Below, in pieces: positions 43,830-64,000 of a stretch of 64,000 nt of DNA; position 1 is the first letter of the stretch; the number at the start of each line of letters is the position of its first letter. Position numbers and translations under genes: made by a program. Under the pieces are notes generated by a model, which did no database searches, was not told the origin of the DNA, and worked only from the letters and a program-made list of their open reading frames with translations. The DNA is taken from positions 16,481 to 80,480 of the forward strand of contig JAGZIN010000001.1 of NCBI GenBank assembly GCA_018366195.1. The letters are read 5' to 3'. The stretch comes from Butyricicoccus pullicaecorum (GTDB lineage Bacteria > Bacillota > Clostridia > Oscillospirales > Butyricicoccaceae).

Positions 43830-43877
43830 GATAAACAGAAGCGGATTTTGCTTTCCGCTATGAGGAGGACGAAAAAA

Positions 43878-46736: not shown

Positions 46737-47147
46737 ATGCTGCAAGATAGAATGATGGATACAAAATCTGATATGACAAAGTCAAACAGGACAACAGGGG
46801 GGAACAAGTCGATTGCGGTGCATACAACATTGCGCCTAACCTATGGAGAGGAAAAGGTATTTGGTCCCGGGCTTGCCCAGCTGTTGGAGGGAATTCTGGA
46901 GCATGGCTCTTTGCGCCGCAGTGCGGCGGAGATGAATATGAGTTACAATAAGGCTTGGAAAATTATAAAAAACAGCGAGGCACAGTGGGGACAGACGCTG
47001 ATTGAACGGAAAGTTGGCGGTGTACACGGCGGCGGTGCCGTTTTAACCGCCTTTGGTCAATCGATTTTGAAAAAATATCGCGCGTTTGAACAGCAGGCAG
47101 AAATTGCACTTTGTACGCTGGTGCAGGAATATTTTGGGGAGGTGTGA
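46737..47147 (+). CDS. ModE-N-terminal-like winged HTH regulator (no TOBE domains)
   Basis: The pattern LRRSAAEMNMSYNKAWKII...GGVHGGGAVLTAFGQSIL matches the ModE molybdate-regulator N-terminal domain. Confidence 0.65.
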   Translation: MLQDRMMDTKSDMTKSNRTTGGNKSIAVHTTLRLTYGEEKVFGPGLAQLLEGILEHGSLRRSAAEMNMSYNKAWKIIKNSEAQWGQTLIERKVGGVHGGGAVLTAFGQSILKKYRAFEQQAEIALCTLVQEYFGEV

Positions 47148-47150
47148 GTG

Positions 47151-48173
47151 ATGGAATCCATTCCGTTTTGTCGTGGCGGCGGCTGTACGGCAAAGCTTGG
47201 TCCAGCGGCATTGGAACGGGTGCTGTCGCACTTGCCGCGTCCAACCGATTCAAAGCTGTTGATTGGAACAGAATCCAGTGATGATGCTGCCGTGTATCAG
47301 CTGACAGAGGATTTGGCAATTGTACAGACCTTGGATTTTTTTCCACCCATGGTGGAGAACCCTTATATTTTTGGACAGATTGCGGCTGCCAATGCGCTGA
47401 GCGATGTTTATGCAATGGGAGGCAAGGTGAGAACGGCGCTCAATATTGTATGCTTTCCGGAGCAGATGGATTTGAATATTTTAGGGGAGATTTTGAAGGG
47501 CGGCAATGAAAAGGTCATGGAAGCAGGTGGGTCGCTCGTGGGCGGACACTCAATTGCAGATAGTGAGGTGAAATATGGGCTGTCTGTCACGGGGATTGTG
47601 AATCCAGCACACATACGTGCCAATCATACGGGGAAGGTTGGAGATGCTCTCGTTTTGACCAAACCCTTGGGGGTGGGGCTTGTGTGTACGGCGGCGCGTA
47701 TGGGGGCGGCTTCTGCACAGGCAATGGAGCTTGCGGTGCGTTCTATGGTGACGCTCAATCAAGCAGCGGCGGAACTCGCAGACCGGTATCCGGTACATGC
47801 CTGTACCGATGTGACCGGATTTGGACTTGTGGGGCATTTGCATGAAATGCTGCGCGCGGACTTGTCCGCACGAATCTATATGCACAGGCTGCCAAAAATT
47901 CCGGAAGCGCTCCTCTATGCGCAGGAATTTTATCTGACCGCGGCGGCACAACGAAACCGAAATTTTGCGCAGGGACGGATTCAGATGCGTGGACTGTCTT
48001 TTGCGGAAGAGGAACTCTTGTTTGACCCGCAGACCTCTGGTGGACTGCTCTTTGCCATAGATGCGGACTATGCAGATGAATTTGTAAAAGAGCTGGAAGC
48101 CGAGGGATTACCTTGTGCAAGGATTGGAGCACTGATTCCGCGCATGGCTGTGGAAATCATCGTAGATGCCTAA
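47151..48173 (+). CDS. selD: Selenide, water dikinase (selenophosphate synthetase), Cys-type
   Basis: Has the RGGGCTAK active-site loop with Cys (no in-frame TGA) and an AIR-synthase-like fold. Confidence 0.9.
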
Positions 48174-48216
48174 AAATAGAGTATATTTGCTGGTAGAAGG
48201 AAATAAGGAGAATACA

Positions 48217-48864
48217 ATGGCAATAATTGTAGATGCACGTGGAAAGCTGTGTCCGGAGCCTATCATCGAGACGAAAAAAGCAATTCAGGAACAGGGTGTC
48301 CCTGTCATCACCATGGTGGATAATGAAATTGCAAGACAGAATGTGGAAAAAATGGCGCAGCAGATGGGGTTCTATGCGGAATCCAGTGAGATAGAAGGCG
48401 GATTTCGTATTTTGATTCAATCGGTCAGCAGCGATGTCTTGTCTGCTGTCATGGGGGACGCTGCAAAAGCACTGGAGCAGCATTTACCAGCGCTGGAGCC
48501 GGTCGCGTTTGCGCCGCAGAGTGCCATGGGAAAGACCGTTGTGGTTCTTTCCTCCAACTGCATGGGAACTGGAGATGATGCGTTGGGTGCAGCTCTGATG
48601 AAAGGATTTGTCTATGCGCTGACACAGCTTGATACCGCACCTGATACAGTTCTTCTGTATAATGGTGGTGCAAAGCTTTCTGCGGAGGGGGCAGACACCG
48701 TCGAAGACCTCAAGGTCTTGCAGGAAAATGGTGCGGAGATTTTAACCTGTGGAACCTGTCTGAGTCACTATGGGTTGACAGATGCGTTGGCAGTGGGCTC
48801 GGTCACCAATATGTATACCATTGCTGAGACTTTGATGGAGGCAGGGAAGGTGATTCGTCCATGA
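48217..48864 (+). CDS. yedF: YedF selenium-metabolism protein (TusA-like plus DsrE-like domains)
   Basis: Has the CPEP TusA motif. AAGGAG RBS. Confidence 0.75.
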   Translation: MAIIVDARGKLCPEPIIETKKAIQEQGVPVITMVDNEIARQNVEKMAQQMGFYAESSEIEGGFRILIQSVSSDVLSAVMGDAAKALEQHLPALEPVAFAPQSAMGKTVVVLSSNCMGTGDDALGAALMKGFVYALTQLDTAPDTVLLYNGGAKLSAEGADTVEDLKVLQENGAEILTCGTCLSHYGLTDALAVGSVTNMYTIAETLMEAGKVIRP

Positions 48865-49694
48865 TTCCATGGGTTGCAGTGCGCGGAGCAGGAGATTTGG
48901 CAACAGGGACGATTGTGCGTCTGGTCAATTGCGGCTTTCGTGTCCTTGCAATGGAGTGTGAGCAGCCATCTGCAATCCGCCGTCAGGTCGCTTTGTCCGA
49001 AGCAGTATATGATGGAACCGCTGTGGTGGAGGGAGTTGCCTGCCGCCGAATTTCTCAGGTGTCACAGGCAGATGCTGTCTGGCATAACGGGGAAGTCCCC
49101 TTGCTCGTAGATACGAAGGCAGCCTGTATTTCAGACCTTGCACCAGCGGTTGTGATAGATGCAATTTTGGCAAAGCGTAATTTGGGAACCTGTCGTGATA
49201 TGGCACCGATTACCATTGGGCTGGGTCCGGGATTTACGGCGGGACAAGATGTAGATGCCGTCATTGAAACCATGCGCGGACACAATTTGGGACGAGTTCT
49301 ATATACCGGAACGGCATTGCCCAATACTGGGATACCGGGGCTGATTGGCGGATATGGTGCAGAGCGTGTGATACATGCGCCGGCAGATGGTGCACTGCGA
49401 TGCGCACAAGAGGAAAATGGTATGCCGATTGAGATTGGCAGCACGGTACAGCGCGGACAAATCATTGCCTATGTGGGAGATACCCCAATTGCTGCAACCT
49501 TGGACGGCGTTCTGCGCGGACTCATTCGTACCGGTTATCCGGTGACAAAAGGGCTGAAAATCGCAGACATTGACCCAAGAATCGAGCAAAAGAAAAACTG
49601 TAACACAATATCAGATAAGGCACGCAGTATTGCGGGCGGTGTAGTTGAAGCCATGCTATGGCTTGCAAAGCAAAGGGGGCTCACGCTATCGTGA
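48861..49694 (+). CDS. yqeB: Selenium-dependent molybdenum hydroxylase system protein, YqeB family
   Basis: The size and the context between yedF and the csd-like gene fit YqeB. I assigned the family from memory of the TIGR03309-type pattern. Confidence 0.6.
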   Translation: MIPWVAVRGAGDLATGTIVRLVNCGFRVLAMECEQPSAIRRQVALSEAVYDGTAVVEGVACRRISQVSQADAVWHNGEVPLLVDTKAACISDLAPAVVIDAILAKRNLGTCRDMAPITIGLGPGFTAGQDVDAVIETMRGHNLGRVLYTGTALPNTGIPGLIGGYGAERVIHAPADGALRCAQEENGMPIEIGSTVQRGQIIAYVGDTPIAATLDGVLRGLIRTGYPVTKGLKIADIDPRIEQKKNCNTISDKARSIAGGVVEAMLWLAKQRGLTLS

Positions 49695-50821
49695 TTTATT
49701 TTGATGCAGCAGCGACTTCTTTTTTGAAGCCGGATACCGTACAGTCAGCGATGAAAGAAGCGCTTGAGACAATGAGTTCAGTTGGACGTGGGGCATATCC
49801 GCCGGCGCTTGCAGCGGCGCGTACCGTTCTGCACTGTCGGGAGCAGCTTGCAAATTTATTTGGATTATCTGACCCTGCACGGGTTTGCTTTACACAGAAT
49901 GCCACAGAAGCACTCAACACAGCAATTTTTGGTTTGCTCAATCCGGAAGACCATATTATTACAACAGCAATGGAACATAATTCGGTGCTGCGTCCGCTCT
50001 ACTATCTGGAGGAAATGGGAGCACAGCTCACAATTTTGCCGACCGATGCACAGGGAGGAATTGACCTGCGCGATTTTGAAACCGCATTGCGTCCCAATAC
50101 CAAAGCGGTTGTCTGTACCCATGCGTCCAATGTGACTGGAAATGTGCTGGATTTGGAGCGGATTGGTGCCTTTTGCCGCGGACACGGACTGTTATTTGTG
50201 GTAGATGCTGCCCAGTCGGCAGGTACGCTGGAAATTGATATGGTATGGCAGGGGATTTCGGTTCTGTGCTTCAGCGGACACAAGGGATTGTTTGGACCGC
50301 AAGGAACAGGCGGGCTTTGTGTGGCACCAGAGGTGTTTGTCCGTCCGCTCAAGGTGGGAGGCAGTGGAATCGACAGCTTTGACAGATATCAGCCGTTTGA
50401 ATATCCGGAAGCTTTGGAAGCAGGCACACTCAACGTGCATGGCATCGCAGGTTTATCTGCGGGATTGGAGTTTATTCATCGTGTTGGATTGTATGCGATT
50501 CATGAGCGGGAGAATATGCTGGCGCAGCGGTTTTATACAGGGATTTCAGGATTGTCTGGCGTGACGATTTATGGAGATTGGAATACGCCACTTCGTACCG
50601 CAATTGTCGCCATGAATATAGAGGGAGAGGACGCTGACGTGGTGTCAGATGTGCTTGCCGAGCGGTATGGAATCTGCACGCGGGCGGGTGCGCATTGTGC
50701 CCCTCTGATGCACGATGCGCTGGGTACCGATAGCTTAGTACGCTTTTCGTTCTCTTATTTCAACACAGAAGACGAAGTGGATACCGCCATTGGTGCGGTG
50801 CGGGAGCTGGCGGGAGCATAA
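49692..50821 (+). CDS. Class V aminotransferase, cysteine desulfurase/selenocysteine-lyase-like
   Basis: Has MIYFDAAATSF and the PLP-Lys SGHKGLFGPQG motif. The GTG start overlaps the yqeB stop. Confidence 0.8.
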
Positions 50822-50825
50822 TGTC

Positions 50826-51065
50826 ATGCTGAGAAAGAAGGAAGCGCGTGTTGTCATCACGTTTCGTACAACGACCGCAGCCATGCAAACCGAAGCCTTA
50901 GCGCAGGAAAGGAAGCTGTCCGGACGGCTGATTCCTGTACCGCGTGAAATCACGGCGGGCTGTGGACTGGCGTGGAGTGCACCGCCAGAGCAGAGAGCCG
51001 ATTGGCAAAGGCTGCTTATGCAGAAGGGAATTGCCGTACAGGATATCTATGAGCTTGTCATTTAA
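50826..51065 (+). CDS. DUF3343 domain protein (putative Se/S carrier)
   Basis: 79 aa with ITF.TT.AM and LIPVPREITAGCGLAW motifs. Confidence 0.65.
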   Translation: MLRKKEARVVITFRTTTAAMQTEALAQERKLSGRLIPVPREITAGCGLAWSAPPEQRADWQRLLMQKGIAVQDIYELVI

Positions 51066-51096
51066 GGATTCTGAAGCAGTGAGGGGGAGGCGCTTG

Positions 51097-51663
51097 ATGA
51101 CAGCGATTGTGATGGCGGCAGGGCTGTCAACTCGTATGGGTGCCGACAAGCTGACCTTGCCTTTGGAGGGAAAACCCGTCTTTGTGCATATCCTGTCCCG
51201 TGTCTGTGCGCTCCCCTTTGCAGAACGGTTGGTTGTAACCAATCAGGCGCAAATTGCGCAGTATGCGGTGCAGCATGGATTTCGGGTGGTTCCATCGCCG
51301 AATGCTGCGTTGGGGATGGGATATTCGGTGGCAGCGGGTGCGCGGGCTGTGCGTGCAGATGTGCAGGGAATCATGTTTTTGAATGCAGACCAGCCCTTTA
51401 TCTCCCGGGAAATGATAGAAAATCTATGGAGTCTGTTCTTAGAAAAGAATCAAATCATGGTTCCCTATGTCAAAGAAAAGCCAAGCAGTCCTTGTATTTT
51501 CCCGATTCGATTCCGTCAGGAGCTGGAAGCGTTGACTGGAGAACAGGGAGGAAAGCAGGTGTATCGGAAGCATTTGGACGAAACCTGCTTTGTCCCACAA
51601 CAAAGTGCAGAGTTGTTTGCGGATTTGGATTGTCCGTCAGATTATCTTCCCTACCAACAATAA
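51097..51663 (+). CDS. MocA/YgfJ-like nucleotidyltransferase (molybdenum cofactor cytidylyltransferase family)
   Basis: Has the MAAGLSTRMG..DK NTP-transferase motif. Confidence 0.7.
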   Translation: MTAIVMAAGLSTRMGADKLTLPLEGKPVFVHILSRVCALPFAERLVVTNQAQIAQYAVQHGFRVVPSPNAALGMGYSVAAGARAVRADVQGIMFLNADQPFISREMIENLWSLFLEKNQIMVPYVKEKPSSPCIFPIRFRQELEALTGEQGGKQVYRKHLDETCFVPQQSAELFADLDCPSDYLPYQQ

Positions 51664-51690
51664 AAAAGGACGCTTTGGCGTCCTTTTTTT
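51663..51690. terminator. Bidirectional terminator
   Basis: AAAAAAGGACGC tttg GCGTCCTTTTTTT. Confidence 0.85.
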
Positions 51691-51755
51691 GAGGTTATGA
51701 AGGAAAGTGCTGGGTACAGATATCTGTTCCGGTACGAATGTTGCAAAAGAGCTGA

Positions 51756-52439
51756 TTATAGCGCAGATAATGGAGCGGGCAGACCATCTTTTTGCAGACT
51801 GGCAAAGACGCAATGCAGATGCTGGAAGGAAGAAGCGAGGGAAGAAGCATACGCCTGCGGACAAGCATCGCATTGATTAAGCAAGATAGTCAGCCGTTCG
51901 GCAGGCATTTTGCTGGCAAGGATTGCGTCCTCGATACAGATACGAATGATTTGCGCATCTACGGGACGGTCTGGTGTCTGGCTCCATTCGGGGTGCAGTG
52001 TGTAGCGATGCACACATTCGGATATCGGGCGACCGAGCGCAGATAAGCCTACAACAATGATACCGTGTGTGGTATGCGGAAGAATGACCGGTTCGCTCTG
52101 TGTATGCAGCTTGAGCGGCATACGCCTTGCCCCATCTGCTTCATAGAAGATGTAGTCTGCATACTGCTCTGCAAGGGAAAGCAGGTCTGGAGATAGCGCA
52201 GACAGCTTTTTCCCATCTTGTGTTCCTGCACAGGTGATACCGGAACAGGATAATGCAGCACGAAGCGTCTCAGCCTGCGGGTCGATACACAGGCGCTCCA
52301 CATCAGGCGGGAAAAACGGCAGAATATGTGTGGTTGTGGTAACGAGCACATGCTTTGTGCGGTGATGCTCGGAAAGCATACGGAGCAGAGTGGTTTTTCC
52401 GCCTGCTCCGATGATAGCGACTTTTCGGATTGCGGACAT
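51756..52439 (-). CDS. yqeC: Selenium-dependent hydroxylase accessory protein, YqeC family
   Basis: The N-terminus MSAIRKVAIIGAGGKTTLL is a P-loop. GGAGGA RBS. Confidence 0.7.
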   Translation of the reverse strand: MSAIRKVAIIGAGGKTTLLRMLSEHHRTKHVLVTTTTHILPFFPPDVERLCIDPQAETLRAALSCSGITCAGTQDGKKLSALSPDLLSLAEQYADYIFYEADGARRMPLKLHTQSEPVILPHTTHGIIVVGLSALGRPISECVHRYTLHPEWSQTPDRPVDAQIIRICIEDAILASKMPAERLTILLNQCDACPQAYASSLASSFQHLHCVFASLQKDGLPAPLSAL

Positions 52440-52534
52440 GATGAATTCCTCCGAAATATAGAAGATTTTGGCGAAAAGAGTTGACAAGCCCACTGCACAG
52501 TCCGTATACTGAGAGAAGAGCAGGGGGGAGCGTC

Positions 52535-53344
52535 GTGGAAGAAAATCAGGAGAATGTGCGAAAAAAGAACCATTCTGCGCACAAAAAACGTCTGACAAAG
52601 GTGCAGAAAAGACGGATTTTACGTCGCCGCAGGCTGAAGATTGCGCTTGGGATTGCCGCAGTTTTCGCACTTTGTGTGGTTGGAATCTATACCACAAGGG
52701 AAACAAAAGAGCAGATTGTCAGTGCCCATCAGCTGCATACTTTTGGCTGGAACGCACCAATTTCCCATCAGCAGGTGGACGAGCTGAATCGGCTTCTGGA
52801 GCAATATCAGATTACTTCAAAAGCAAGCCTGACGATGTTTTTTGCAACCGTAGCAAGCGAAACCGATTGCGGCAGGCTGGTTCTGGAAACCGGTGGTGAT
52901 GCACATTATACAGAGCATGGTTATCGGGCAGAGGAGCGCGGTGCCGGTTATCTCCAAATCACGCACCGTCCCAAGCAGCTGGAATTTCTGAAGGCAGTAA
53001 AAGATTCCTTTCACGGCGCAGATACGGCGACCTATATTGCAGAAAATTATCCATGGGAATCTGCCTGCTGGATATGGAGTGAGGGAAAAACGTCTCCCGC
53101 TCCCAATCCCAATGAATATGCCAAAACACGCGGAAATACACCAGAGGTATTCCTTGCAACACAGTATGGAATCAATGGCTGGACCATTTCAGATGAAGCA
53201 CTGGGAAAAATTGTACAGGGAGCAGACTATACCGTCAGTGAGGACGGGAAAATGGTTACAGTAGATGGAACGTCTGCACCACTGCCGAAAAACTGGACAC
53301 AAAGGCTGGAATGGTATCAAAAAGCCAACCGTATCTGGGGATAA
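52535..53344 (+). CDS. Membrane-anchored GH19-like (lysozyme/chitinase-like, COG3179-type) protein
   Basis: Has a basic N-terminus and one transmembrane segment, then FFATVASETDCG...LETGG...GAGYLQIT, which resembles the GH19 'AQ.SHESGG ... GRG.IQLT' core. It has its own promoter, TTGACA-18-TATACT, at 52481-52510. Confidence 0.45.
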   Translation: MEENQENVRKKNHSAHKKRLTKVQKRRILRRRRLKIALGIAAVFALCVVGIYTTRETKEQIVSAHQLHTFGWNAPISHQQVDELNRLLEQYQITSKASLTMFFATVASETDCGRLVLETGGDAHYTEHGYRAEERGAGYLQITHRPKQLEFLKAVKDSFHGADTATYIAENYPWESACWIWSEGKTSPAPNPNEYAKTRGNTPEVFLATQYGINGWTISDEALGKIVQGADYTVSEDGKMVTVDGTSAPLPKNWTQRLEWYQKANRIWG

Positions 53345-53382: not shown

Positions 53383-53721
53383 TTACGTTTCGGGCAAGAG
53401 CCAGCCGTCATCTTCGTCCCAGCCAAGAAGCACATCTCCAAGGGAAACATACCAGGTTGCATCTTCCAAAATACGGCAGATATCGGTCAGGCAGCATGTC
53501 CAGTATATATAAGATTCGGTATCATGCTCCGGCAAGTTGATGGTGCCGGAAAAAATGATTTCCGGTGTGCTGGGGTCATAGGAATACACAGTGAATGCGT
53601 CAGCTGCATCGCGGTATTCAAAATCGGACTGGTACCGTGCAATCACGATATCAATAGCCGCCGCCTCGTCCTCAGACAATGGCTCGGCGCGGAAGGCACG
53701 GTAGGACAGCACTATGGACAT
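53383..53721 (-). CDS. Hypothetical acidic 112-aa protein
   Basis: AAGGAG RBS. I recognise no family. Confidence 0.35.
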   Translation of the reverse strand: MSIVLSYRAFRAEPLSEDEAAAIDIVIARYQSDFEYRDAADAFTVYSYDPSTPEIIFSGTINLPEHDTESYIYWTCCLTDICRILEDATWYVSLGDVLLGWDEDDGWLLPET

Positions 53722-54051
53722 GGGTTTTGATGGCTCCTTTCGGTGAAACAAAAATACAAAAAGTGGTCTCGCTGTCAGCAAGCTAAGCTTACATATCATT
53801 TCCTATTATACAGAGGTTACAGAGAAATGTCAAAGAGTTTTCAAAAGCTAGAAAGAAAAATAGAATACAGCAGAGATGCAGAGCCATCAGGGTAATATAC
53901 ACTCTTTTCCTTGAAATATTGGGGTTCTATGGGGGATAGTATAACAGATTTTATAGAGATGTCAAGGAAATCGGTAATTTTATGCAAGTATGCGCGGGGG
54001 ACTTGGAACACAGAAAAACAGACCGCTGGAATGCGGTCTGTTGTAATAGAT

Positions 54052-54867
54052 TTAGGAATTGGAGGTCACGGAGGTGATGGTGGGGGTTCGCATGGATTCA
54101 TAAATTTTAATGGTTGGTGCAAGCCATACAGAGCCAGTGCCGCGATATACATTGACAAGCCCTTCTCCGCTGACAGCAGAGCCAATGAGTGTTTTGGCGC
54201 TTCGCTCAACGGTGAAGTCAAGGTTTGCAGAGCGCAGAATGGCAAAGTTTCCATCTACCTTCAGGGTATCATTTTGCAGTTCGATGATATCAATTTCGCT
54301 CATGGGAACAGAGGATTCCAGAATAATAATACCGGGGCCGGTCAGTTCCGTTTGAAACAGACTTTCTCCGCCCAGTGCAGCCGAAGAAATTGTGCGCTGG
54401 GAAACTGCACGGACGCCAACGCTGCCTTGTGCACAGTAGAACATGCCGTCATCTACGATGATGCGTTCATTGGGCGCAAGCTCCAACACAAGAAAGTGCT
54501 GAAAAGAAGGCTCTAAGACCAGCATACCGGTTCCCGTATATTCGGGCTGTGCCATCTGCTCACCAGTGACCGCGCCGCGAAGCATGCGTCCAATTGCATT
54601 GCCTGCCGTAACGCCGCTGACCATTTGTAGATTCCCTTGGAAATAACTCATGGCTCCCCGCTCGATGGTAACCTTTTCATTGTTCAGATATAAGGCAACC
54701 TGACGCGGACGGATATGTTGCTGCTCCATGAAATAGACATCTTGCGCCATATAAGGATTGGTCAGACCACATAGCTTTTCATATTCCAACACTTCAACAC
54801 GCAGTCCGCCGCTTTCAAATTCTTCCAGAACACGGACGTTTTCACGGGTACCAATTGCTTTTCGCAT
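54052..54867 (-). CDS. AIM24/DUF124 family protein
   Basis: Full-length match to the AIM24 pattern (GGESLFQTELTGPGIIILESS). Confidence 0.85.
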   Translation of the reverse strand: MRKAIGTRENVRVLEEFESGGLRVEVLEYEKLCGLTNPYMAQDVYFMEQQHIRPRQVALYLNNEKVTIERGAMSYFQGNLQMVSGVTAGNAIGRMLRGAVTGEQMAQPEYTGTGMLVLEPSFQHFLVLELAPNERIIVDDGMFYCAQGSVGVRAVSQRTISSAALGGESLFQTELTGPGIIILESSVPMSEIDIIELQNDTLKVDGNFAILRSANLDFTVERSAKTLIGSAVSGEGLVNVYRGTGSVWLAPTIKIYESMRTPTITSVTSNS

Positions 54868-54887
54868 AAATATATTCTCCTTTTTTC

Positions 54888-56297
54888 TTATTGGGGTAAG
54901 AAACCATGTGCAAATTGCCGAATGATTTCATAGGATACTGCAAGATTCAGGTTTTGTCCCTCGGTAAACCCTGATGTGACAATACCAATTAAAAAACCGT
55001 AACGGTCTAAAAGTGCACCACCGGAGCTGCCCGGTGCAGCAGGTGCGGTAAACTGAATCATTTTCGTGTGCTGAAACTGTCGGAAGCCGGAAATGATGCC
55101 GTCAGAGACGGAGTTAAACAGTCCCAGCGGACTGCCAATGGCAAAAACAGACTGCCCCCGTGCAAGGTCAGCGCCTTGATAGAGGGGGATTGGCTTTCCG
55201 TGACAGTCCGGAAGCCGCAGCAAAGCAAGGTCAAAGTCAGGGTGGTATTTCAGCAGCTCGTTGGTCGTGAAAACTGCATCGCTGTTTTCCAGATGGACGG
55301 CATAGGCATCGCCGCCCGCTACGACATGGAAATTGGTTAGAATGATACCGCCCGGGGCGAGCAGCACGCCGGAGCCGGAGGACTTTGGACTTCCGTTTGC
55401 ATCTAAGACCTCAATCATAACAACAGAGGAGGCAAAGCCTGCCAATGTTTCATAATCCAATGGGGCGTGCGCTGTACCAGCAGAGGGGGTTACGGGGGCG
55501 CGGGATACCACAGGATTTGCAGACCGCGTTGACGTCATCGTTTCCGGTCTGGACGCAGATGCCGCAGGGCGGCGGGGATGCTGTGGAATATGTAAGATTT
55601 GCCGCTTTGAAGCAATCGACGTCTGCGGTGCGGACGGCTGTGCGGGTATCGTTGGGGCAAGCCGGTGCAGCAGCGCTTGTGCGCAGTCTGGAGAGCTGGG
55701 CAGACCTTTTATTGCAGCCGCTTGCGGAAAGAGCGCCTGTGTTCCGGCTGGACGCAATACTGCAATATCGCAGCCCAAATGAAGCAGAACAGAGCATACG
55801 AGACGGATTGCTGCATCGGGTTCCCCAATCCAGATACATTTCGGAAAAACAGAAGACGAAGCGGGAAACAGAAGGGGAAGTATGGTGTCCAGTATACAGA
55901 GCAGCTGTGCAGTTTGCGCTTGGCGATTTGGCAATTCTATTTTATCCAGCGCTTGATGCAGTGCTGTATGAAGCTGTGAAGGAGAAAGAAGTGCAGATAC
56001 CTCGGGGAGTGAGAGGTTTGTATCACCTGCAAGCAGGCGCTGTGCCGCAGAGGTGAAGTGTGCCGTGCGCTCCTGTGGCGGAAGTATGTGTGCACCCATG
56101 CAGACAATACAGTGATTGCCTGTGCGGGCGCATGCACTGGAAAGTGTTTCGGCAAGCGTGTCTGGTGATTCCGGCAAACCAAGCCATTCTAAGAAATATA
56201 CGTCCTTGCAGGTATCGTGTATGCGTCCGCGGATATTTAAGAATGCAGGCAGCTGGGAAATTTGCATGGGATTTAAGCGAATGGAGAAAGTTGTCAT
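54888..56297 (-). CDS. Two-domain protein: YceG-N-terminal-like domain, Pro/Gln/Ser-rich linker, C-terminal trypsin-like (S1/DegP-type) serine protease
   Basis: The C-terminus has the His region TNFHVV, the Asp region DLALL and the catalytic-Ser region GSSGGAL. The N-terminal 230 aa align with the N-terminus of the ORF at 59857-62256 (PKCIWIGEP...LGCDIAVLRPAG vs PRILYDGDL...AGCDILLIEPAG). The ORF track's 5' extension to 56543 is low-GC and non-coding-like. Confidence 0.7.
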   Translation of the reverse strand: MTTFSIRLNPMQISQLPAFLNIRGRIHDTCKDVYFLEWLGLPESPDTLAETLSSACARTGNHCIVCMGAHILPPQERTAHFTSAAQRLLAGDTNLSLPEVSALLSPSQLHTALHQALDKIELPNRQAQTAQLLCILDTILPLLFPASSSVFPKCIWIGEPDAAIRLVCSVLLHLGCDIAVLRPAGTQALFPQAAAIKGLPSSPDCAQALLHRLAPTIPAQPSAPQTSIASKRQILHIPQHPRRPAASASRPETMTSTRSANPVVSRAPVTPSAGTAHAPLDYETLAGFASSVVMIEVLDANGSPKSSGSGVLLAPGGIILTNFHVVAGGDAYAVHLENSDAVFTTNELLKYHPDFDLALLRLPDCHGKPIPLYQGADLARGQSVFAIGSPLGLFNSVSDGIISGFRQFQHTKMIQFTAPAAPGSSGGALLDRYGFLIGIVTSGFTEGQNLNLAVSYEIIRQFAHGFLPQ

Positions 56298-56570
56298 AAG
56301 TGGGTCCTCGGTGTTGAGATTTGTCACTATTATAACACAGGTTGAAAAAAGAGAACAGAGGGGGAGCGGAAAATCAAGGCGAAAAATCAAGAAAGGTAAA
56401 ATAACAGTAAAATTTAGAAGTTTAGATTTGCAAAGAAAACGATATCTGTGATATGATAAATACAAAGCATCTATTTTTGTTGGATTTCTCCATGCAATCC
56501 TTTTTGCCGTTTTGCATGGACTTTCAGTCTGTACCGGTACCAAGATGCGAGAAAGAAGGAGAAGTTAGAT

Positions 56571-57533
56571 ATGTCACAATCGGTCTCCCCTTATGCGGTC
56601 GGGGCGCTGCTGTATACACCGGCAAATCGTGAAAATATTGCGCAGAGTGTGATAGCAGGACGTTTTGATACACCTTATTCCCTTGCACTGTGCTTGGAGG
56701 ACAGTATCTGTGATGAGGCAGTTCCGGCAGCGGAATGTCAGGTGATACAGACGCTTGAGCAGATTGCACAGGCAAAGGAGGATTTTTACAAGCCGATGAT
56801 TTTTGTTCGGGTACGTACACCGGAGCAAATTGGACGGCTCTATGCACAGATGGGGCAAGGAACCAAGGTGCTGACCGGCTTTATTGCGCCCAAATGTACG
56901 GCAGATAATCTTCCGGCATATTTGGCGCAGGTGAACACGCTTCGTGTGCATGACAACCTATATCTGATGCCGATTCTGGAAAGTGTTGATTTGGCAGAGC
57001 CGGATACAAGACAGATACAACTGAGAAAAATCAAAGAAATCTTAGATGCCAATCGGGACTGTATCCTGAATGTACGGGTCGGAGGCAATGATTTTTGCCA
57101 TATTTTTGGCTTGCGCCGTCATACCTCGGAAACGATTCATGATATTCGCTGTGTTGACCGGATTTTGAGTGATATCATTACATACTTTTCGCGCGATTAT
57201 GTGGTGTCCGGTCCGGTTTGGGAATATTTTGATGACCCCGAGGGCGCATGGAAAGCAGGACTGCTGCGAGAGGCACAAATGGGGGCACTCAACGGCTTTA
57301 TCGGAAAAACCGTGATTCACCCCAATCAAATTGCAGTGGTCAATCAGGTGCTTCAGGTCAGTGCGGAGGATTATGCAGATGCGCGTGTGATTTTAGAGAT
57401 GTCAGAAAACTCGGATTTTTTAGTTTCTAAAAGTGCTCGCGGCGGAAGAATGAACGAATATAAGACACACACCAAATGGGCACATAAGATTTGTACCCTT
57501 GCAGAAATTTATGGAGTACGGCATGAAGCTTGA
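56571..57533 (+). CDS. HpcH/HpaI aldolase / citrate-lyase-beta (CitE)-like C-C lyase
   Basis: Has the CitE-like LYTPANR motif and the TIM-barrel lyase pattern. Confidence 0.8.
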   Translation: MSQSVSPYAVGALLYTPANRENIAQSVIAGRFDTPYSLALCLEDSICDEAVPAAECQVIQTLEQIAQAKEDFYKPMIFVRVRTPEQIGRLYAQMGQGTKVLTGFIAPKCTADNLPAYLAQVNTLRVHDNLYLMPILESVDLAEPDTRQIQLRKIKEILDANRDCILNVRVGGNDFCHIFGLRRHTSETIHDIRCVDRILSDIITYFSRDYVVSGPVWEYFDDPEGAWKAGLLREAQMGALNGFIGKTVIHPNQIAVVNQVLQVSAEDYADARVILEMSENSDFLVSKSARGGRMNEYKTHTKWAHKICTLAEIYGVRHEA

Positions 57534-58659
57534 CAGAAAACAGCTTGTGCGCACGGCCGTGCGTGAAAATAATACCAAAAGACCGTATTTGCTGGTCAAT
57601 CCTTCTCAGGGAAAGCATGTTCCCGTCGCGCCACACACTGCCTTGCAGCTTTTTTCGGCGCTTGCGGAACAGGTGCAGGAGCAGGTGGGAACCACTGCGC
57701 CTGTGCTCATCATTGCATTTGCAGAGACAGCGACCGCGATTGGTGCGGCAGTTGCCGCAAAGCTCCGCAATCCGACCGTTTTCATGCAGACCACGCGAGA
57801 AGTCACAGACCCAAATCCTTATTTATGTTTTTCGGAAACGCACAGCCATGCAGCGGAACAATATATGACAAGAGACGGACTGGGACCAGCGCTTCGATGG
57901 GCAGAGCATGTGGTTTTTGTAGAAGATGAGGTCACAACGGGCAATACCATTTTGCACCTGATGAATGTGCTGAATGAACAGTATGAAACACAACAGGTGA
58001 CGTTTGGTGTTGCCTCAATCCTGAACGGCATGACAGAGGAATCCAGAGAGCGTTATGCAGCACGCGGGATTTGGACAAGATACCTTTTGCATACAGATAA
58101 TGCAGCGATGGAACGTATGCTGGAACAATATAACTGTCAGGGAGACAAATATCCGGTGTGTACTGCTTATGCGCAGGCGCCGGATATCGTGGAGATTTGG
58201 GGTATGCCGAATATCCGCTCCTGTGCGTGGCGGGCAGATGCGTATCAGCAGGCGTGTGCAGCATTGGCACAGACGATTTGTAATACCGTTCCGACAGATG
58301 CCCAAAATATTTTGGTACTTGGAACAGAGGAGTGCATGTACCCTGGCTTGTGGGCAGGATATCAACTGGAACAGCGGGGGTATACTGTGAGATTTCATGC
58401 AACCACACGCAGCCCAATCCAGCCGAGCACAGAGCCGGACTATCCGCTGCACAGCCGTTACACGCTGCAAAGCCTATATGACAGCAATCGTGTGACTTAT
58501 ATCTATGACCTTACAGCGTATGACTATATCTGCATTGTGACCGATGCACCGGAACCACAGAAAAATGGGCTTTCCAGTTTGCTGTCTGCATTGGAACAGG
58601 CTGGAAATACCAGAATGACAGTGTTTCATTGGAAGTCAGAATATTGGAGGTCAATATGA
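57523..58659 (+). CDS. Phosphoribosyltransferase-domain protein (Ter-cluster associated)
   Basis: Has the VVFVEDEVTTGNT PRPP-binding motif. Confidence 0.8.
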   Translation: MKLDRKQLVRTAVRENNTKRPYLLVNPSQGKHVPVAPHTALQLFSALAEQVQEQVGTTAPVLIIAFAETATAIGAAVAAKLRNPTVFMQTTREVTDPNPYLCFSETHSHAAEQYMTRDGLGPALRWAEHVVFVEDEVTTGNTILHLMNVLNEQYETQQVTFGVASILNGMTEESRERYAARGIWTRYLLHTDNAAMERMLEQYNCQGDKYPVCTAYAQAPDIVEIWGMPNIRSCAWRADAYQQACAALAQTICNTVPTDAQNILVLGTEECMYPGLWAGYQLEQRGYTVRFHATTRSPIQPSTEPDYPLHSRYTLQSLYDSNRVTYIYDLTAYDYICIVTDAPEPQKNGLSSLLSALEQAGNTRMTVFHWKSEYWRSI

Positions 58660-59705
58660 ACAGTAGCTATCGTACCGAAGATGTGATCTTACTTTTGAAA
58701 GATATTACAGGGCAGGTGGAGCCGATGTCCACCCAAGAACGGGAAAAACAGATTCAAGCAGGGATATCCTATTGCGAAATGCTCCCAAGAGAATATGTAC
58801 CCAGCCCGAATTATTTGGAGGCCTATCAGCAGGCACTGCGCAATGAAACCGACCGTACAGCTGCGGCAGTCCGTACCTGTGCAGAGCGTATTTATCAGGA
58901 TAAGGGAAACAAAGTTGTTTTGGTATCGTTGGCACGAGCGGGTGTGCCGATTGGTATTTTGCTCAAGTGGTATTTGCGCAGACGATATGGCATAGAAGTA
59001 CCGCATTATGGAATTTCCATCATTCGGGGACGCGGCATCGACCACAATGCAATGCGTGTGCTATTGGAACAACACGCACCGGAGAGCTTGCAGTTTGTAG
59101 ACGGCTGGATTGGAAAAGGTGCGATTTTAACCGAGTTACAGCGCGAGCTTGCTGGATATTCGGGGGTCAGTGCACAGCTTGCTGTTTTATCCGACCCGGC
59201 TGGTCTGACAGACCTGTGCGGAACCCATGAAGATTTTCTGATTCCAAGCTCCTGCCTCAATTGTACGGTATCTGGTCTCATCAGCCGCACCTTCCTGCGC
59301 AGGGATATCATTGGCGTATCGGATTTTCACGGCGCTGCCTATTATGGAGAGCTTGCAGCACAGGATCGTTCCTATGAATTTTTAGATGCGATTGCAGCAC
59401 GCTTTGAGAACGCTCCCAAACTGCCGGAGATTTCGCTGATACAGAGCGGACTGGAGGAAACAGAGCAAATCGCAAGGCACTTTGGAATCGAAGATATCAA
59501 TTTGGTAAAGCCGGGAATCGGTGAGGCGACACGTGTGCTGCTGCGCCGCCTGCCATGGAAAATGCTTGTGCGGGAGGATATGCAGCAGGATCCTGCTTTG
59601 GCACATCTTTATCAGCTTGCACGGGAAAAGGGGGTTGCGGTGGAACCGTATCCGCTGCAAAATTACAAGGCATGCGGAATCATTCAGCAGCTGCGAGATG
59701 TATAA
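58656..59705 (+). CDS. StiP-family (PELOTA/PRTase-like) protein
   Basis: The ATG overlaps the preceding stop (ATATGA). My assignment to the StiP family is from memory of TerD-associated clusters, at moderate confidence. Confidence 0.6.
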   Translation: MNSSYRTEDVILLLKDITGQVEPMSTQEREKQIQAGISYCEMLPREYVPSPNYLEAYQQALRNETDRTAAAVRTCAERIYQDKGNKVVLVSLARAGVPIGILLKWYLRRRYGIEVPHYGISIIRGRGIDHNAMRVLLEQHAPESLQFVDGWIGKGAILTELQRELAGYSGVSAQLAVLSDPAGLTDLCGTHEDFLIPSSCLNCTVSGLISRTFLRRDIIGVSDFHGAAYYGELAAQDRSYEFLDAIAARFENAPKLPEISLIQSGLEETEQIARHFGIEDINLVKPGIGEATRVLLRRLPWKMLVREDMQQDPALAHLYQLAREKGVAVEPYPLQNYKACGIIQQLRDV

Positions 59706-59856
59706 GAATATTGTCAAATATTTACAAACTGTAAACATTTGAAATGCCCCCATGCCATGTATTGAAAAACGACGATAAAAATGATAAAGTGATAGTATCA
59801 TTTGACATGTTACTGAATGAAAGTGAAATCATAGGGTAAGGTCAGGGGCTTAGATT

Positions 59857-62256
59857 ATGCAAACACGATTGCAGTTAACAAAATTTGATGATTTTTGGAA
59901 ACCTTTGAGTGCGCGGCAGCCAGCGGGAGTTTATTTTTGCAGGATTGCCGGATATGGTCCAGACCTTGTGCACTTTTTGGAACAGGCGATGCAGAAACGC
60001 ACACAAATGCCAATGCGCATCACCGGAAAGCTGCAAAATCCGAATGGCAACCAGCTGAGTTATTTACAGAGTGTGTTGGGGGACACGTTTCAATGTGACA
60101 CAGCTTTTTTTGAAGCACAGCTTGTAAAGTGGCTGCCGCGTTTGAACCAGACACAGCGCACCCAAATTGCAGAGGCAATCGGTCAGGTGCTTGAAACACA
60201 GCGCGCACAGGGGAAAAACGATAATATGCTGCGCAATGCGTATATAAAGTTTATGTGCTGGCTGTATTATCGCTTTGAACAGCTCCTGCATCTGTTGGGG
60301 AAAGACCCGCTGCCGCGTATCTTATATGATGGGGATTTAAGCAGTCATGAGTTTCAGTTGTTTTGTATTCTGGCTCGGGCAGGCTGTGACATTCTGCTGA
60401 TTGAACCGGCAGGAGATGCGCAGTATCAAAAGCTTGACCCGCAGAATCAACAGTCTGCGCTGTGTGCATGGGCGGGACATGCACCCTTTCCACCTGATTT
60501 TTCGTTGGAGCAGATGGTAAAGACCTATCGTCCGCCTGCACAGAGTTCGCGTCCGGCTGAGACACCCGCCCGTCCCCAAACCGTGCAGCCGTCTCCACGT
60601 CCGGCGGCGCCGATTCGCACACAACAGACGGCGAACCCACAGTCGGCAGATACACGGCAGAGAGCGCAGCCGCAAAGACAGCGCACACCAGCAGAGCTGT
60701 TTCCAGATGCACCTGTGATTGCGCCGAATACATGGCTTTCCGGAAACCTGCCAGCCGATTCCCTGAAGGAGCCTGCCAGCCGCGGAGAGAATGACGACTA
60801 TATCTATACCATGTTTGTTCGTATATTGGGTGTGGAGGACAAATCTTCTTATGAACGGGATTTGTTTTTGTGGCGAAAAAAATTGGAGGATACGGGAAGG
60901 CATGTGACCGTTTTGGAGGAGTTTTCCCTGCCAACGCCAGAGGAAACCGCGAGGGTTGCACGCAGCAATGCGCAAAGTGGTGCACAGGTCATCTCCAGTC
61001 TGCTGCCGATGCTCCAGCCAACGGCAAACCATCGGCTAGATGCTGCGGTCGGCCGTGCATTTGTGGAGATTTTGACCGAGCTGGACAGGGAACATGAGCC
61101 TCCCATGCGCATCAAGAACAAAGGTGTGTATCTCGTATGCTGGTTTAATCGTTATTTTCGATTGCTTTTTGAGGGATACAGTGCAGGAAAGCTGCCAATA
61201 TTGTTTTATTTTGGCCTTTGCCATACCGCCTTTGAAGCCTTATTCCTTCGTTTTCTGGCAAAGCTTCCCATTGATGTGCTGGAAATTTATCCAGAGCAGC
61301 CAGAGCCTTGCTGCCTTTCGGACAAGCTGTTATTTGAGCGCATCTATCCAAATACCATGCACGTAGCACATTTTCCGGAGTCTGCCGATGCCGTTTCCTA
61401 TCAGACAGCAGCCTACCATGCAGAGCAGGAGCTGACGGAAACCCTATATCAGGATTCAGGTTTGTACCGTGCGCATCAATATCAAAAGGCTGCGGCGGTT
61501 TCGCTGCAAACCATGTGCGAGGAAATTTTTATTTTATGGGATAAAGAGGCGCTGTATCGCCCGGGCTTTGAGGTTGTAGATGATACGGTACTGGTACCCG
61601 TTTTGACTGCAAAGGTCAGCGGTGTAAAAAATCGGGACACCAGTGCTTATTGGTCGCAGGTCAAGCGCATGGTAAATACAGATACCATTTGCATGACACG
61701 CCTGCCTTATATGCAGCCAGTCGAGGATACGCGTCTCAATCCGGTATCCTTTATTAAGAATAGAAAGCTGCAAAGAGAGGCACTGAAAAACAGTCCTGCC
61801 TATCCTTATGGGCTGCTTCGCTCGGAGGTACAGGATTTCCTGTTGGACAAGGTGCAAATGCTGTTGGATTCTGGATTGATTCGAGGCACCTTTTCCCAGG
61901 GAATGGAATATAAGATTTTATCGGTTGCCATGAATCTGCCCAAGGAAATCGTTCGCATATTGCAGAAGGCGGATTTTACACAGGCTGTTCCCAAAGTCGC
62001 TGTTGTGGCAACAGGAGAACAGTCCTGCAGCTTGGAGGACAGTATCCTTCTGGCACTTTTGCACAATGCCTGTTTTGATGTCGTGCTGTTCGTGCCAACC
62101 GGATATCAAATCATCGAGAAGTATTATACAGAGCCATTTTTTACCGAGCATCAGGCGGGCGAATATCTGTATGATTTGCAGCCGCCTTACCTGTCTGCGT
62201 CCTCACCCAGCGGTGAGGGGATTTTGAGTCGATTCTTTAGGAGGGGTCACACATGA
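59857..62256 (+). CDS. YceG-like protein (B. subtilis yceG homolog in TerD/TelA operons)
   Basis: 799 aa. It lies immediately upstream of telA and terD, as in the yceCDEFGH operon. Its N-terminal domain is shared with the protease fusion at 54888-56297. Confidence 0.7.
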   Translation: MQTRLQLTKFDDFWKPLSARQPAGVYFCRIAGYGPDLVHFLEQAMQKRTQMPMRITGKLQNPNGNQLSYLQSVLGDTFQCDTAFFEAQLVKWLPRLNQTQRTQIAEAIGQVLETQRAQGKNDNMLRNAYIKFMCWLYYRFEQLLHLLGKDPLPRILYDGDLSSHEFQLFCILARAGCDILLIEPAGDAQYQKLDPQNQQSALCAWAGHAPFPPDFSLEQMVKTYRPPAQSSRPAETPARPQTVQPSPRPAAPIRTQQTANPQSADTRQRAQPQRQRTPAELFPDAPVIAPNTWLSGNLPADSLKEPASRGENDDYIYTMFVRILGVEDKSSYERDLFLWRKKLEDTGRHVTVLEEFSLPTPEETARVARSNAQSGAQVISSLLPMLQPTANHRLDAAVGRAFVEILTELDREHEPPMRIKNKGVYLVCWFNRYFRLLFEGYSAGKLPILFYFGLCHTAFEALFLRFLAKLPIDVLEIYPEQPEPCCLSDKLLFERIYPNTMHVAHFPESADAVSYQTAAYHAEQELTETLYQDSGLYRAHQYQKAAAVSLQTMCEEIFILWDKEALYRPGFEVVDDTVLVPVLTAKVSGVKNRDTSAYWSQVKRMVNTDTICMTRLPYMQPVEDTRLNPVSFIKNRKLQREALKNSPAYPYGLLRSEVQDFLLDKVQMLLDSGLIRGTFSQGMEYKILSVAMNLPKEIVRILQKADFTQAVPKVAVVATGEQSCSLEDSILLALLHNACFDVVLFVPTGYQIIEKYYTEPFFTEHQAGEYLYDLQPPYLSASSPSGEGILSRFFRRGHT

Positions 62257-63380
62257 GTATTCATTTTGGTTCTCGTCCACCAGAGCCTGCGGTGCAGGCT
62301 GAGATGACAACAGAGATTGTACCATACAACATTCAAGATGACCGCGAGCAGATGACCAAGCAGCTCACCGGCACCAAGGAGGTCGATGATATCGCAAGCA
62401 CCATTGAGGTGTACAATTTGGAAACGATTGTCGGCTTTGGCGGAGAGGTCGCCGGAGAAATTGCAAAATGCTCCGATGCGGTGCTGAGCGGCATGAATAT
62501 GAGCCAAATTGATGATTCGGGTGCAATGCTCAATGCACTGAGCAAAATTATGGATAAATTCGACATTGATGAGATTCGGGACGATCCCGGTTTCTTTGGA
62601 CGATTGTTTTCCAATATGCGCAAGCAGCTGGACAAGATTCTGGATAAATACCGCACCATGGGCGATGAGGTGGATAAGATTTTCGTGCAGCTCAAGCAGT
62701 ATGAATCGGAAATCAAGGAATCCAACCGTAAGCTGGAGCAGATGTTTGAGACCAATGTGAATTATTATCATGAACTGGTAAAATATATTTTGGCAGGCGA
62801 ACAGGGCTGTCAGGAAATTGCTGCATACATAGAACAGCGGCGCGGCGATTTGCAGCAAACCGGTGACCAGTCCATTCAGTTTGAGCTGCAAACGCTGGAG
62901 CAGGCACAGATGATGCTGGAGCAGCGCACACACGACCTGCGCATTGCAGAAAATGTTGCGATGCAGTCCATTCCGATGCTCAAAACGATGCAGTTTGCCA
63001 ATATGAATCTGGTTCGAAAAATCAATTCTGCCTTTATTATCACGCTGCCTGTCTTTAAGCAGGCATTGGCACAGGCGATTTTGCTCAAGCGGCAGCGTAT
63101 TCAAGCAGAAGCGATGAGCGCATTAGATGAAAAGACCAATGAAATGCTGCTGCGCAATGCACAGAATACAGCGGAGCAGTCTCGTGTGACCGCACAGCTT
63201 GCATCGGGCAGCTCGGTTAAAATCGAGACGCTGGAGCAGACTTGGAAAACCATTGTGCAGGGCATTGCAGACACACGCAAGATTCAAGATGATGCACGGC
63301 ATCAGAGAGAACAGGATACCGAGCGTCTGCGTGCGATTCAGGGTGAATTTGAACAGATGATGCGCGGCGGACAGGCTTAA
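62253..63380 (+). CDS. telA: Toxic anion resistance protein TelA (YceH/KlaA family)
   Basis: 375 aa coiled-coil with the TelA pattern. Translationally coupled (ATGA overlap) to the YceG-like gene. Confidence 0.85.
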
Positions 63381-63421
63381 CGGTTCGCTGTCCAATCTGT
63401 CATAAAAAAGGAGAGATAATT

Positions 63422-64000
63422 ATGCCAATCAGCTTGCAAAAAGGACAGAAAGTAGACTTAACCAAGGGAAATCCAAGTCTTCGACATGTGCTTGTCGGTT
63501 TGGGCTGGGACGTCAATAAATATGATGGCGGCTTCGACTTTGACCTTGATGCCAGTGCTTTTCTGCTCGGTGCGAATGGACAGACTCCGGATACAGATGC
63601 CTTTGTATTTTATGGGAATCTCAAACATTCGTCAGGCTCTGTGGAGCACATGGGAGATAACCTGACCGGTGAAGGGGACGGCGATGATGAGCAGATTGTA
63701 GTGGACTTGTCTGCCATTCCGCAGAATATAGAAAAAATCGCCTTTACCGTGACCATTTACGAGGCGGAAAAGCGCCGTCAGAACTTTGGACAGGTTGCAA
63801 ATGCCTATATCCGCATTGTGGACAGCGATACCAATCAGGAGCTGATCCGCTATGATTTGGGTGAGGATTTCTCGATTGAAACCGCAATCGTTGTCGGTGA
63901 AATTTACAGACACAATGGCGAATGGAAGTTTAATGCAGTTGGCTCTGGATTCCAAGGCGGACTTGCAGCGCTTTGTGCCAATTACGGAATCGAAACCTGC
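63422..64000 (+). CDS. terD: TerD-family tellurium-resistance/stress protein (3' end may run past the window)
   Basis: [13 protein letters not shown]...GLGWDVN...[10 protein letters not shown]...[15 protein letters not shown] is the TerD Ca-binding fold. AAGGAGAG RBS. Confidence 0.85.

Follow-up and report, generated by a model that had tools for sequence, protein, structure and literature searches.

We examined a 64,000-nucleotide stretch of a Butyricicoccus pullicaecorum assembly (GCA_018366195.1, contig JAGZIN010000001.1, forward-strand positions 16,481 to 80,480), referred to here as the window, whose last part, from position 54052 to the window end, carries a gene cluster related to the Ter stress-response systems. 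An earlier note on this DNA had named eight genes there, a CitE-like lyase, a phosphoribosyltransferase (PRTase), StiP, a YceG-like protein, TelA, TerD, a protease and AIM24, and all eight are present at the coordinates given below, as established by open reading frame (ORF) listing, translation and hidden Markov model (HMM) scans. Each family call was upheld by its HMM test, those of the PRTase, StiP and the CitE-like lyase included. The locus is almost certainly the chromosomal copy of a Ter stress-response locus in a Butyricicoccus species close to B. pullicaecorum, whose metagenome-assembled genomes are the closest named relatives (StiP is 90% identical); strain B. pullicaecorum DSM 23266 has the locus as well (L012). 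Its form is the Firmicute one, in which a biosynthetic enzyme module is combined with YceG/TelA and three TerD proteins, without TerC.

The putative enzymes are encoded by three overlapping genes on the plus strand. The first (56571-57533) specifies a 320-residue C-C_Bond_Lyase, a Ter-specific TIM-barrel protein of the HpcH/CitE superfamily that matches PF15617 over the full profile length (E = 5e-100) and is 32% identical to the lyase of a Klebsiella ter plasmid; it matches CLYBL, malyl-CoA lyase, RipC and CitE solely in the C-terminal GKxxIHPNQI motif. Overlapping it by 11 nucleotides is the gene (57523-58659) for a 378-residue protein composed of PRTase_2 (PF15609, 3.1e-42; 144.7 bits against a cut-off of 28.8) and a C-terminal TRSP domain (PF12500, 4.5e-21), in which direct reading of the sequence locates a motif resembling a phosphoribosyl pyrophosphate (PRPP) loop, VFVEDEVTTGNT. 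The stop codon of this gene shares the letters ATGA with the start of the StiP gene (58656-59705), whose 349-residue product joins a PRTase-like N-terminal part to a PELOTA_1 domain (PF11202, 4e-100; PF15608, 5.8e-31). StiP has more than 7,000 homologues, in which V148-D149-G150-W151 and G153-K154-G155-A156-I157 are invariant and I152 is nearly so; a solved structure was not found for it, and its PELOTA part gave weak L7Ae matches only. The Pfam families matched at this locus are those named for the Ter neighbourhood.

Further along the same strand lie the genes for YceG, TelA and TerD. The YceG_bac family protein (59857-62256, 799 residues; PF14266, 5.6e-89) consists of module 1 (~1-225), a disordered Pro/Gln-rich linker (228-273), module 2 (~285-500) and a C-terminal region (~540-780), and in an alignment-based AlphaFold2 (AF2) model with a mean predicted local distance difference test (pLDDT) score of 79.2 modules 1 and 2 appear as similar alpha/beta modules. 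Because the Bacillus-type YceG genes matched on plasmids align solely to residues 320-775, module 1 is an addition. Judging from the model, the YceG module is possibly a degenerate P-loop-like unit that may bind a ligand or a partner, which we take as a lead. The start of the adjoining TelA gene (62253-63380) again shares ATGA with the preceding stop codon; it encodes a 375-residue, YceH-type toxic-anion-resistance protein (PF05816, 5.2e-100) for which no solved relative was found by sequence. The three tight junctions noticed earlier are therefore one 11-nucleotide overlap and two ATGA overlaps. The last gene, for the first of three tandem TerD paralogues (63422-64000; PF02342, 8.4e-88), spans 193 codons up to the window end, which cuts off its stop codon. 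All three TerD proteins retain the acidic sequence GDNLTG[EA]G[DE]GDDE, the Ca2+-site motif of Klebsiella TerD; compared with terD/terE of Klebsiella, the TerD genes of the window lineage show 54-59% identity.

A divergent operon on the minus strand encodes a 469-residue S1C (HtrA-like) serine protease (54888-56297) and a 271-residue AIM24/DUF124 family protein (54052-54867). The protease has a Trypsin_2 match (PF13365, 2.6e-27) and a sub-threshold YceG_bac match. Its predicted start at ATG 56297 is supported; a mechanical 551-residue ORF beginning at TTG 56543 was rejected as too long when compared with the gene calls on six near-identical contigs and with full-length homologues of 447-546 residues. 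The protein is laid out as a YceG-type module (~34-188), a disordered Pro-rich linker (~216-274) and a trypsin-fold domain (~282-462), at which the chain ends in the alignment-based AF2 model (mean pLDDT 81.8). That the N-terminal domain is fused from the YceG family, as had been proposed, was confirmed by profile-profile comparison with the family's middle module (hhalign probability 98.4%, E = 4e-15). Many homologues carry precomputed matches to both PF14266 and PF13365, and the UniRef name of one begins "Component of 'biosynthet...". Among 35 homologues, H324, D356 and S424/S425 are invariant, and K153, G175 and D177 are the sole invariant residues of the N-terminal domain. A motif pair, PK-x4-G ... 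GCD(I/V)-hydrophobic-x-P, occurs in each YceG module of the YceG protein as well as in this domain, and may mark a shared functional site. Neither the HMM scan nor the AF2 model contains a PDZ domain, and no N-terminal signal peptide or hydrophobic segment was found; since a signal peptide or membrane anchor is lacking and the N-terminus is a YceG-type module, the protease is probably cytoplasmic. When the N-terminal module was compared with 1.8 billion representatives using phmmer, no other architecture was evident among the 12 matches: nine begin at residue 1-8 of the matched protein, six come from proteins of 434-540 residues, five of which are protease-family homologues, and the remaining matches, of 67-362 residues, are probably fragments. 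The AIM24 gene (PF01987, 3.2e-40) starts 20 nucleotides past the protease stop codon and is followed by a terminator-like hairpin (54042-54017); the only solved relatives of its product are the structural-genomics hypotheticals 1pg6 and 1yox.

The protease and lyase genes share a divergent control region of 273 bp (56298-56570), essentially the 270 bp that had been proposed, which we studied by consensus scan and alignment. The protease-AIM24 operon has a conserved extended -10 element, TGTTATAAT (minus-strand reading, ~56325-56337), and the -10 block is conserved in an intergenic alignment from 22 loci. Facing the lyase operon, the scan finds TTGCAA-18-TATGAT with an upstream TG (56428-56457). 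A second site of this type, TTGAAA-17-TAAAGT with an upstream TG (59762-59790), lies in the 151-bp gap between StiP and YceG (59706-59856) and likely starts a second transcription unit; the gap contains no terminator-like site, so read-through from the enzyme genes is possible. A riboswitch or leader RNA was ruled out for both regions, as no relevant Rfam match was obtained at E <= 1 and the leader fold is not significant, being no better than shuffles (z = -1.05). The Lachnospiraceae arrangement, in which an oppositely oriented lyase gene splits PRTase_2-StiP from the YceG-TelA-TerD block, implies separate units and fits both the promoter-like site before YceG and the conserved back-to-back promoters of the 273-bp region. 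The earlier description of six co-directional genes consequently holds for their orientation, whereas they probably form two transcription units. The same two features, the promoter-like site and the split by the lyase gene, could also mean that two unrelated units happen to be neighbours, a small-molecule pathway (lyase, PRTases and HAD phosphatase, making for example a modified nucleoside or cofactor) and an envelope module of TerD, TelA, YceG and a Ca2+ pump, and PRTase_2-StiP pairs with no Ter genes within 10 kb do occur (for example, loci L023, L066, L085 and L086). However, linkage of the enzymes to TerD is found in Clostridia, in Bacillus cluster 2 and on enterobacterial plasmids, three contexts that are very distant from one another and differ in gene order. 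A linkage that outlasts rearrangement in this way is classically read as a functional tie, here between the enzymes and TerD, and we regard chance neighbourhood as very unlikely.

To follow the cluster past the window end, we used public contigs carrying TelA with the exact window sequence, of which there are many; six were taken (L001-L006). Of these, L002 matches the window at all but 47 of 9,949 positions (99.5% identical). In the six contigs the unit on the plus strand runs on through TerD2, TerD3, a P-type ATPase, a HAD protein, an OmpR-type response regulator, a histidine kinase and a coiled-coil protein. The 879-residue ATPase is classified as a PMCA-type Ca2+ pump (TIGR01517, 587.9 bits against a cut-off of 507.05), has the motifs DKTGT, PEGL and GDGVND at residues 339, 296 and 617, respectively, and has plant ACA8 (8qmp) and Listeria LMCA1 (6zhf) as its nearest solved chains. 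The HAD-IIB-like phosphatase (253 residues; plus strand, L002 15780-16541, ~3.6 kb past the window edge), whose HAD-IIB-type matches fall below the family cut-offs, is 24% identical to the HAD-like gene of the Klebsiella module. The coiled-coil protein (376 residues, Lys/Glu-rich; L002 18471-19601, ~6.7 kb past the window) follows the histidine kinase, has no family match and is present in the closest relatives only.

The earlier note had expected ATP-grasp, HAD, TerY/vWA, kinase and phosphatase partners, and further terD paralogues, just beyond the window edge. Two additional TerD genes and the HAD gene are indeed there, whereas ATP-grasp, TerY/vWA, kinase and phosphatase genes are not found on these 99.5% identical contigs. 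In tblastn searches, the Klebsiella TerC, TerB, TerY, TerY-C, PP2C and kinase queries had no match in the 64-kb window or in 119 related loci, where the TerA and TerF queries matched TerD domains only; vWA proteins were likewise not matched in the window or these loci, and PADLOC returned no TerY-P triad. An ATP-grasp homologue is missing from the window and from L001-L015, and the window locus therefore corresponds to the reduced form described in PMC11994780. Such a homologue does follow StiP in six loci (L046, L064, L067, L074, L077 and L081; at ~11070-11993 in L046 and L074), so both the five-gene and the reduced enzyme modules exist within Clostridia. These six loci are mostly from Lachnospiraceae or related Clostridia, and their ATP-grasp is 25% identical to that of the Klebsiella ter plasmid.

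The conservation of the cluster was assessed in 80 GTDB species loci, which had been retrieved with a StiP profile and to which 17 reference proteins were mapped; the component counts refer to the 45 loci that hold at least 20 kb and were obtained by tblastn with single queries. PRTase_2 is present in all 45 and always adjoins StiP. The lyase is found in 40, YceG and TelA in 37 each, at least one TerD in 33 and the protease in 30. A P-type ATPase occurs in 24, and in at least three more (L046, L051 and L067) the end of the locus truncates it; HAD was detected in 15 loci and AIM24 in six. Recurrence in dozens of species places the linkage far beyond chance, and it is kept in Butyricicoccus, Lachnospiraceae, Acutalibacteraceae, Intestinibacillus, Fusibacter and Alkaliphilus, so the unrelated neighbours that the earlier note had named as fatal to its reading did not appear. 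The usual Lachnospiraceae order is PRTase_2, StiP, lyase (opposite strand), protease, YceG, TelA, three TerD genes and ATPase; in these loci the protease gene lies directly upstream of YceG, a position that makes it a regular member of the cluster. Both the protease and AIM24 recur with the Ter cluster in other lineages. When metagenomes were scanned with the window AIM24, 39 loci at 64-90% identity were recovered, most of which also contain Ter-cluster genes; three (L107, L112 and L113) have AIM24 relatives with up to 10 kb of flanking sequence free of Ter genes, and a few further loci offer too little sequence for a decision. The AIM24 gene is placed either after the protease gene (the Butyricicoccus type) or after the lyase gene (a second lineage), and on the Alkaliphilus plasmid pB6464 a divergent AIM24, a relative of which was found in locus L060, sits between TerD and a P-type ATPase in a third arrangement. 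With three gene orders seen in lineages far apart, both AIM24 and the pump can credibly be counted among the components of the Clostridial form.

To account for this gene content, we propose that a shift in cytoplasmic divalent cations, most likely Ca2+, would signal envelope damage or ion stress. The TerD paralogues, positioned together with TelA and YceG beneath the membrane on its inner side, would act as the cation sensors, and the P-type ATPase, standing in the place of TerC, would export the cation, Ca2+ or possibly Mn2+. PMC7824862 and PMC11994780 relay a model of Anantharaman, Iyer and Aravind (2012) in which the enzymes yield a PRPP-derived, nucleoside-like product. In our version, PRPP would serve to ribosylate a small acceptor made or trimmed by the lyase, and the HAD phosphatase would strip the 5'-phosphate to leave a nucleoside-like signal or protectant. 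The YceG modules of YceG itself and of the protease are the best candidates for a partner- or ligand-binding element, and could couple the system to proteolysis, with AIM24 as a co-factor or substrate. The Ter assignment together with this mechanism is the explanation we favour overall, with moderate confidence. Its parts differ in strength: we consider the chances of a functional link to Ca2+ or other divalent cations to be even, those of a PRPP-derived small molecule to be equally balanced, and gating of the protease by its YceG module to be doubtful.

Several points weigh against this explanation. The whole mechanism is a prediction. The export of Ca2+ by the pump is predicted with an ion specificity taken solely from HMM classification. 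Comparison of StiP with PRTase_2 by hhalign (99 and 93 sequences) gave a probability of 4%, which is not significant, leaving a resemblance at the level of motifs, and StiP is reported to be a protease rather than a transferase (Reichert 2013, as cited in PMC11994780). A fold search produced no convincing structural match for the YceG family. HAD and AIM24 were found in a minority of the long loci, partly owing to the single-query searches, and the two-component system is lineage-specific (response regulator in 7 and histidine kinase in 6 of 45 loci), counts by which it was ruled out as a core part. Finally, no product, substrate, enzyme assay or solved structure for the lyase, StiP and TelA families was found in the searchable literature and structures, nor does that literature report a product of any Ter biosynthetic module. 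The earlier note's statement that no biochemical work existed is nearly true of the enzymes, but it overlooks studies cited in PMC11994780: StiP of Acinetobacter baylyi, reported there as a protease needed for tellurite resistance, and experimental work on yceGH of Bacillus anthracis. Together with Bacillus altitudinis proteomics, cited in the same source, these make up the published experimental work that could be traced.

The locus was also described earlier as an island, a label that is unsupported, as a flat G+C content of 0.48-0.52 over the whole window and the absence of tRNA genes from it rule out a genomic island. The same ordinary composition, with no integrase or tRNA signal, bears on whether the cluster is instead a dedicated anti-phage or abortive-infection system, in which the PRTase module would make a nucleotide-like second messenger on infection, the YceG modules would sense it, and the trypsin-like protease, with or without a Ca2+ flux, would act as the effector. 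Classical ter operons inhibit phages and colicins (PMC7824862), domains of the TerB and PRTase types turn up repeatedly in defence systems that have been validated (bioRxiv 10.1101/2025.09.30.679545), and jumbo phages carry Ter modules that include PRTase and HAD genes; gut 'Jug' jumbo phages are reported to encode several terD genes as well as a Ca2+ P-type ATPase that is highly transcribed, two features that the paper does not connect (PMC12880540). The protease domain resembles that of the PADLOC system 'RT-Protease_XI' (2e-12), yet this generic trypsin-fold match is the only one that PADLOC gave, seven of the eight proteins having none, and a known defence system was ruled out on this basis. 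Moreover, the neighbouring genes are metabolic rather than defensive, and the cluster, conserved over many Clostridial species and rare on Firmicute phages and plasmids (StiP in 3 phage records, YceG on 5 plasmids), does not behave like a mobile defence island. We consider a dedicated anti-phage role unlikely. Two observations on phages can be added. The terD and Ca2+ P-type ATPase functions of the 'Jug' phages sit in one cluster on Clostridial chromosomes. In addition, a StiP 60% identical to that of the window is encoded at 7238-8284 of MT836648.1, a 15-kb contig of human faecal origin that bears no annotation and is listed as 'Bacteriophage sp.'; either a phage carries a Ter module here, or the contig is bacterial and was misfiled.

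A gene set of the selenium-utilisation type occupies positions 46737-52706, immediately before the Ter locus. Its members are a LysR-HTH fragment, a SelD-like AIRS protein (47148-48173), a TusA/DsrE YedF-like protein (48166-48864) followed by an unknown gene, a class-V aminotransferase or cysteine-desulfurase-like protein (49658-50821), a MobA-like NTP transferase (50944-51663) and YqeC (51756-52706, minus strand). These neighbours suggest a further alternative, that the cluster detoxifies chalcogen oxyanions (tellurite or selenite) in concert with selenium utilisation, and the names and phenotypes of the TerD, TelA, YceGH and StiP families do come from tellurite resistance (PMC11994780). However, no reductase, methyltransferase or oxyanion transporter is present, Ter systems are pleiotropic, and tellurite is probably too rare to account for conservation in gut anaerobes. 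The selenium genes are adjacent in the closest relatives only: YqeC adjoins the cluster in L001-L006, the intervening unknown genes are kept only in L001-L010, and L011-L015 and all Lachnospiraceae loci have different neighbours. A functional tie to the selenium genes was ruled out on these grounds, and oxyanion detoxification is, in our estimate, a long shot. The intervening genes are one at 52481-53344 (plus strand), between YqeC and AIM24, for a 269-residue protein with a basic N-terminus, one hydrophobic segment and no family match, and one at 53383-53799 (minus strand) for a 112-residue acidic protein, also with no family match, that is 90-100% conserved across Butyricicoccus loci and adjoins AIM24 in metagenome locus L122 as well. 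Further upstream, positions 43848-46565 encode a 905-residue protein with at least 10 Sel1 repeats (PF08238, 3e-103).

We rank all three alternatives, chance neighbours, anti-phage defence and oxyanion detoxification, as less well supported than the reading of the cluster as a Ter module linked to Ca2+. Carried to its fullest extent, the latter reading would make the TerC-less Clostridial locus a Ca2+-centred alarm circuit. Its input could be a membrane breach that admits Ca2+, sensed by the three Ca2+-binding TerD paralogues, and its messenger a nucleoside-like molecule made by the PRTase/lyase/HAD module. This messenger could be bound by the degenerate P-loop-like modules of the YceG scaffold and the protease, switching the protease on, with AIM24 as substrate or co-factor, and the PMCA-type pump could reset the signal. 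That all five steps hold jointly is quite improbable. If they did, they would supply a concrete sensor-messenger-effector logic for Ter systems and explain why TerD is paired with a Ca2+ pump in gut jumbo phages. Ter systems are present in very many Firmicutes, and searches of the literature returned no relevant paper on a TerD/Ca2+-ATPase operon or under the names of the Pfam families, and none that discusses a TerC-less Clostridial form with Ca2+ pump, AIM24 and YceG-module protease. A compact form of this kind, widespread in gut Clostridia and with a Ca2+-type pump as its sole integral-membrane partner, sharpens the divalent-cation hypothesis. With this form, both the connection of Ter to calcium and the search for the metabolite become accessible to direct tests, and its four-enzyme set without ATP-grasp could be used for heterologous expression and metabolite discovery.

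A Ter-associated biosynthetic module was reportedly predicted by Anantharaman, Iyer and Aravind in 2012 (Mol Biosyst 8:3142). The kind of system described here has been predicted since that year and is routinely annotated by PGAP and UniRef. The lyase family occurs on 2,521 PLSDB plasmids, nearly all enterobacterial, of which the Klebsiella IncHI1B plasmid NZ_CP125176 was used for comparison. On it, terZABCDE and a vWA gene are divergent from genes for ATP-grasp, PRTase, a HAD-like protein, StiP and lyase, beyond which lie TerY-type vWA genes, TerD, TerY-C, PP2C and a kinase. Its PRTase_2, HAD, StiP and lyase are homologous to those of the window lineage (24-36% identity) and, as here, are linked to TerD paralogues; since these four enzymes adjoin terZABCDE in the same neighbourhood, the earlier note's reading of the locus as a Ter-associated biosynthetic neighbourhood is borne out. 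The Klebsiella module differs in containing ATP-grasp, TerC, TerB, TerA/TerZ, the vWA proteins TerY/TerF, TerY-C, PP2C, a kinase, DUF4236 and CopG, all absent from the present locus, whereas the latter has YceG, TelA, the Ca2+ P-type ATPase, the YceG-module protease and AIM24, and is chromosomal rather than borne on a conjugative plasmid. Multiple TerD paralogues, three in tandem in the window lineage, are shared with the classical terZABCDEF operon, whose TerC and TerB were not found here, and no component of the TerY-P triad (vWA TerY, PP2C and Ser/Thr kinase) was matched. The protease has the trypsin fold and His-Asp-Ser triad of the S1C enzymes HtrA, DegP and DegS; unlike them, it has no PDZ domain, signal peptide or membrane anchor, its N-terminus is of the YceG type, and all its NCBIfam scores are far below the family cut-offs.

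Counterparts are also found in Firmicutes. In Bacillus altitudinis and relatives, terB, three terD genes and terC accompany genes for the lyase, PRTase, StiP and HAD, yceG and yceH (PMC11994780). This 'cluster 2', described for B. altitudinis, B. pumilus and B. atrophaeus, has in common with the window lineage three TerD proteins, the HpcH-type lyase, PRTase, StiP, HAD, YceG and YceH/TelA, but it includes TerC (YceF) and, in strain 3W19, also TerB (PMC11994780). The Clostridial form is distinguished by the extra N-terminal module of its YceG and by the PMCA-type ATPase, and the protease and AIM24 are not listed for Bacillus. With the yceCDEFGH-type operon of B. subtilis, which is controlled as yceC-H by the envelope-stress sigma factors W, M and B (PMC3498285), the window shares YceG followed by the TelA-family YceH, whereas a homologue of the TerC protein YceF was not found here. 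A comparable run is on the Alkaliphilus sp. B6464 megaplasmid pB6464 (NZ_CP058558), where the PGAP annotation reads lyase, PRTase, StiP, HAD, TerD, TerD, AIM24 and cation P-type ATPase. The run is distant from the window lineage, as judged by identities of 36% for the lyase, 44% for StiP and 33% for the ATPase and by an AIM24 too divergent for tblastn, and it has no YceG, TelA or protease within 11 kb. Nevertheless, one co-directional run unites the lyase, PRTase, StiP, HAD, two TerD proteins, AIM24 and the P-type ATPase, which independently supports counting both AIM24 and the pump as parts of the Clostridial form.

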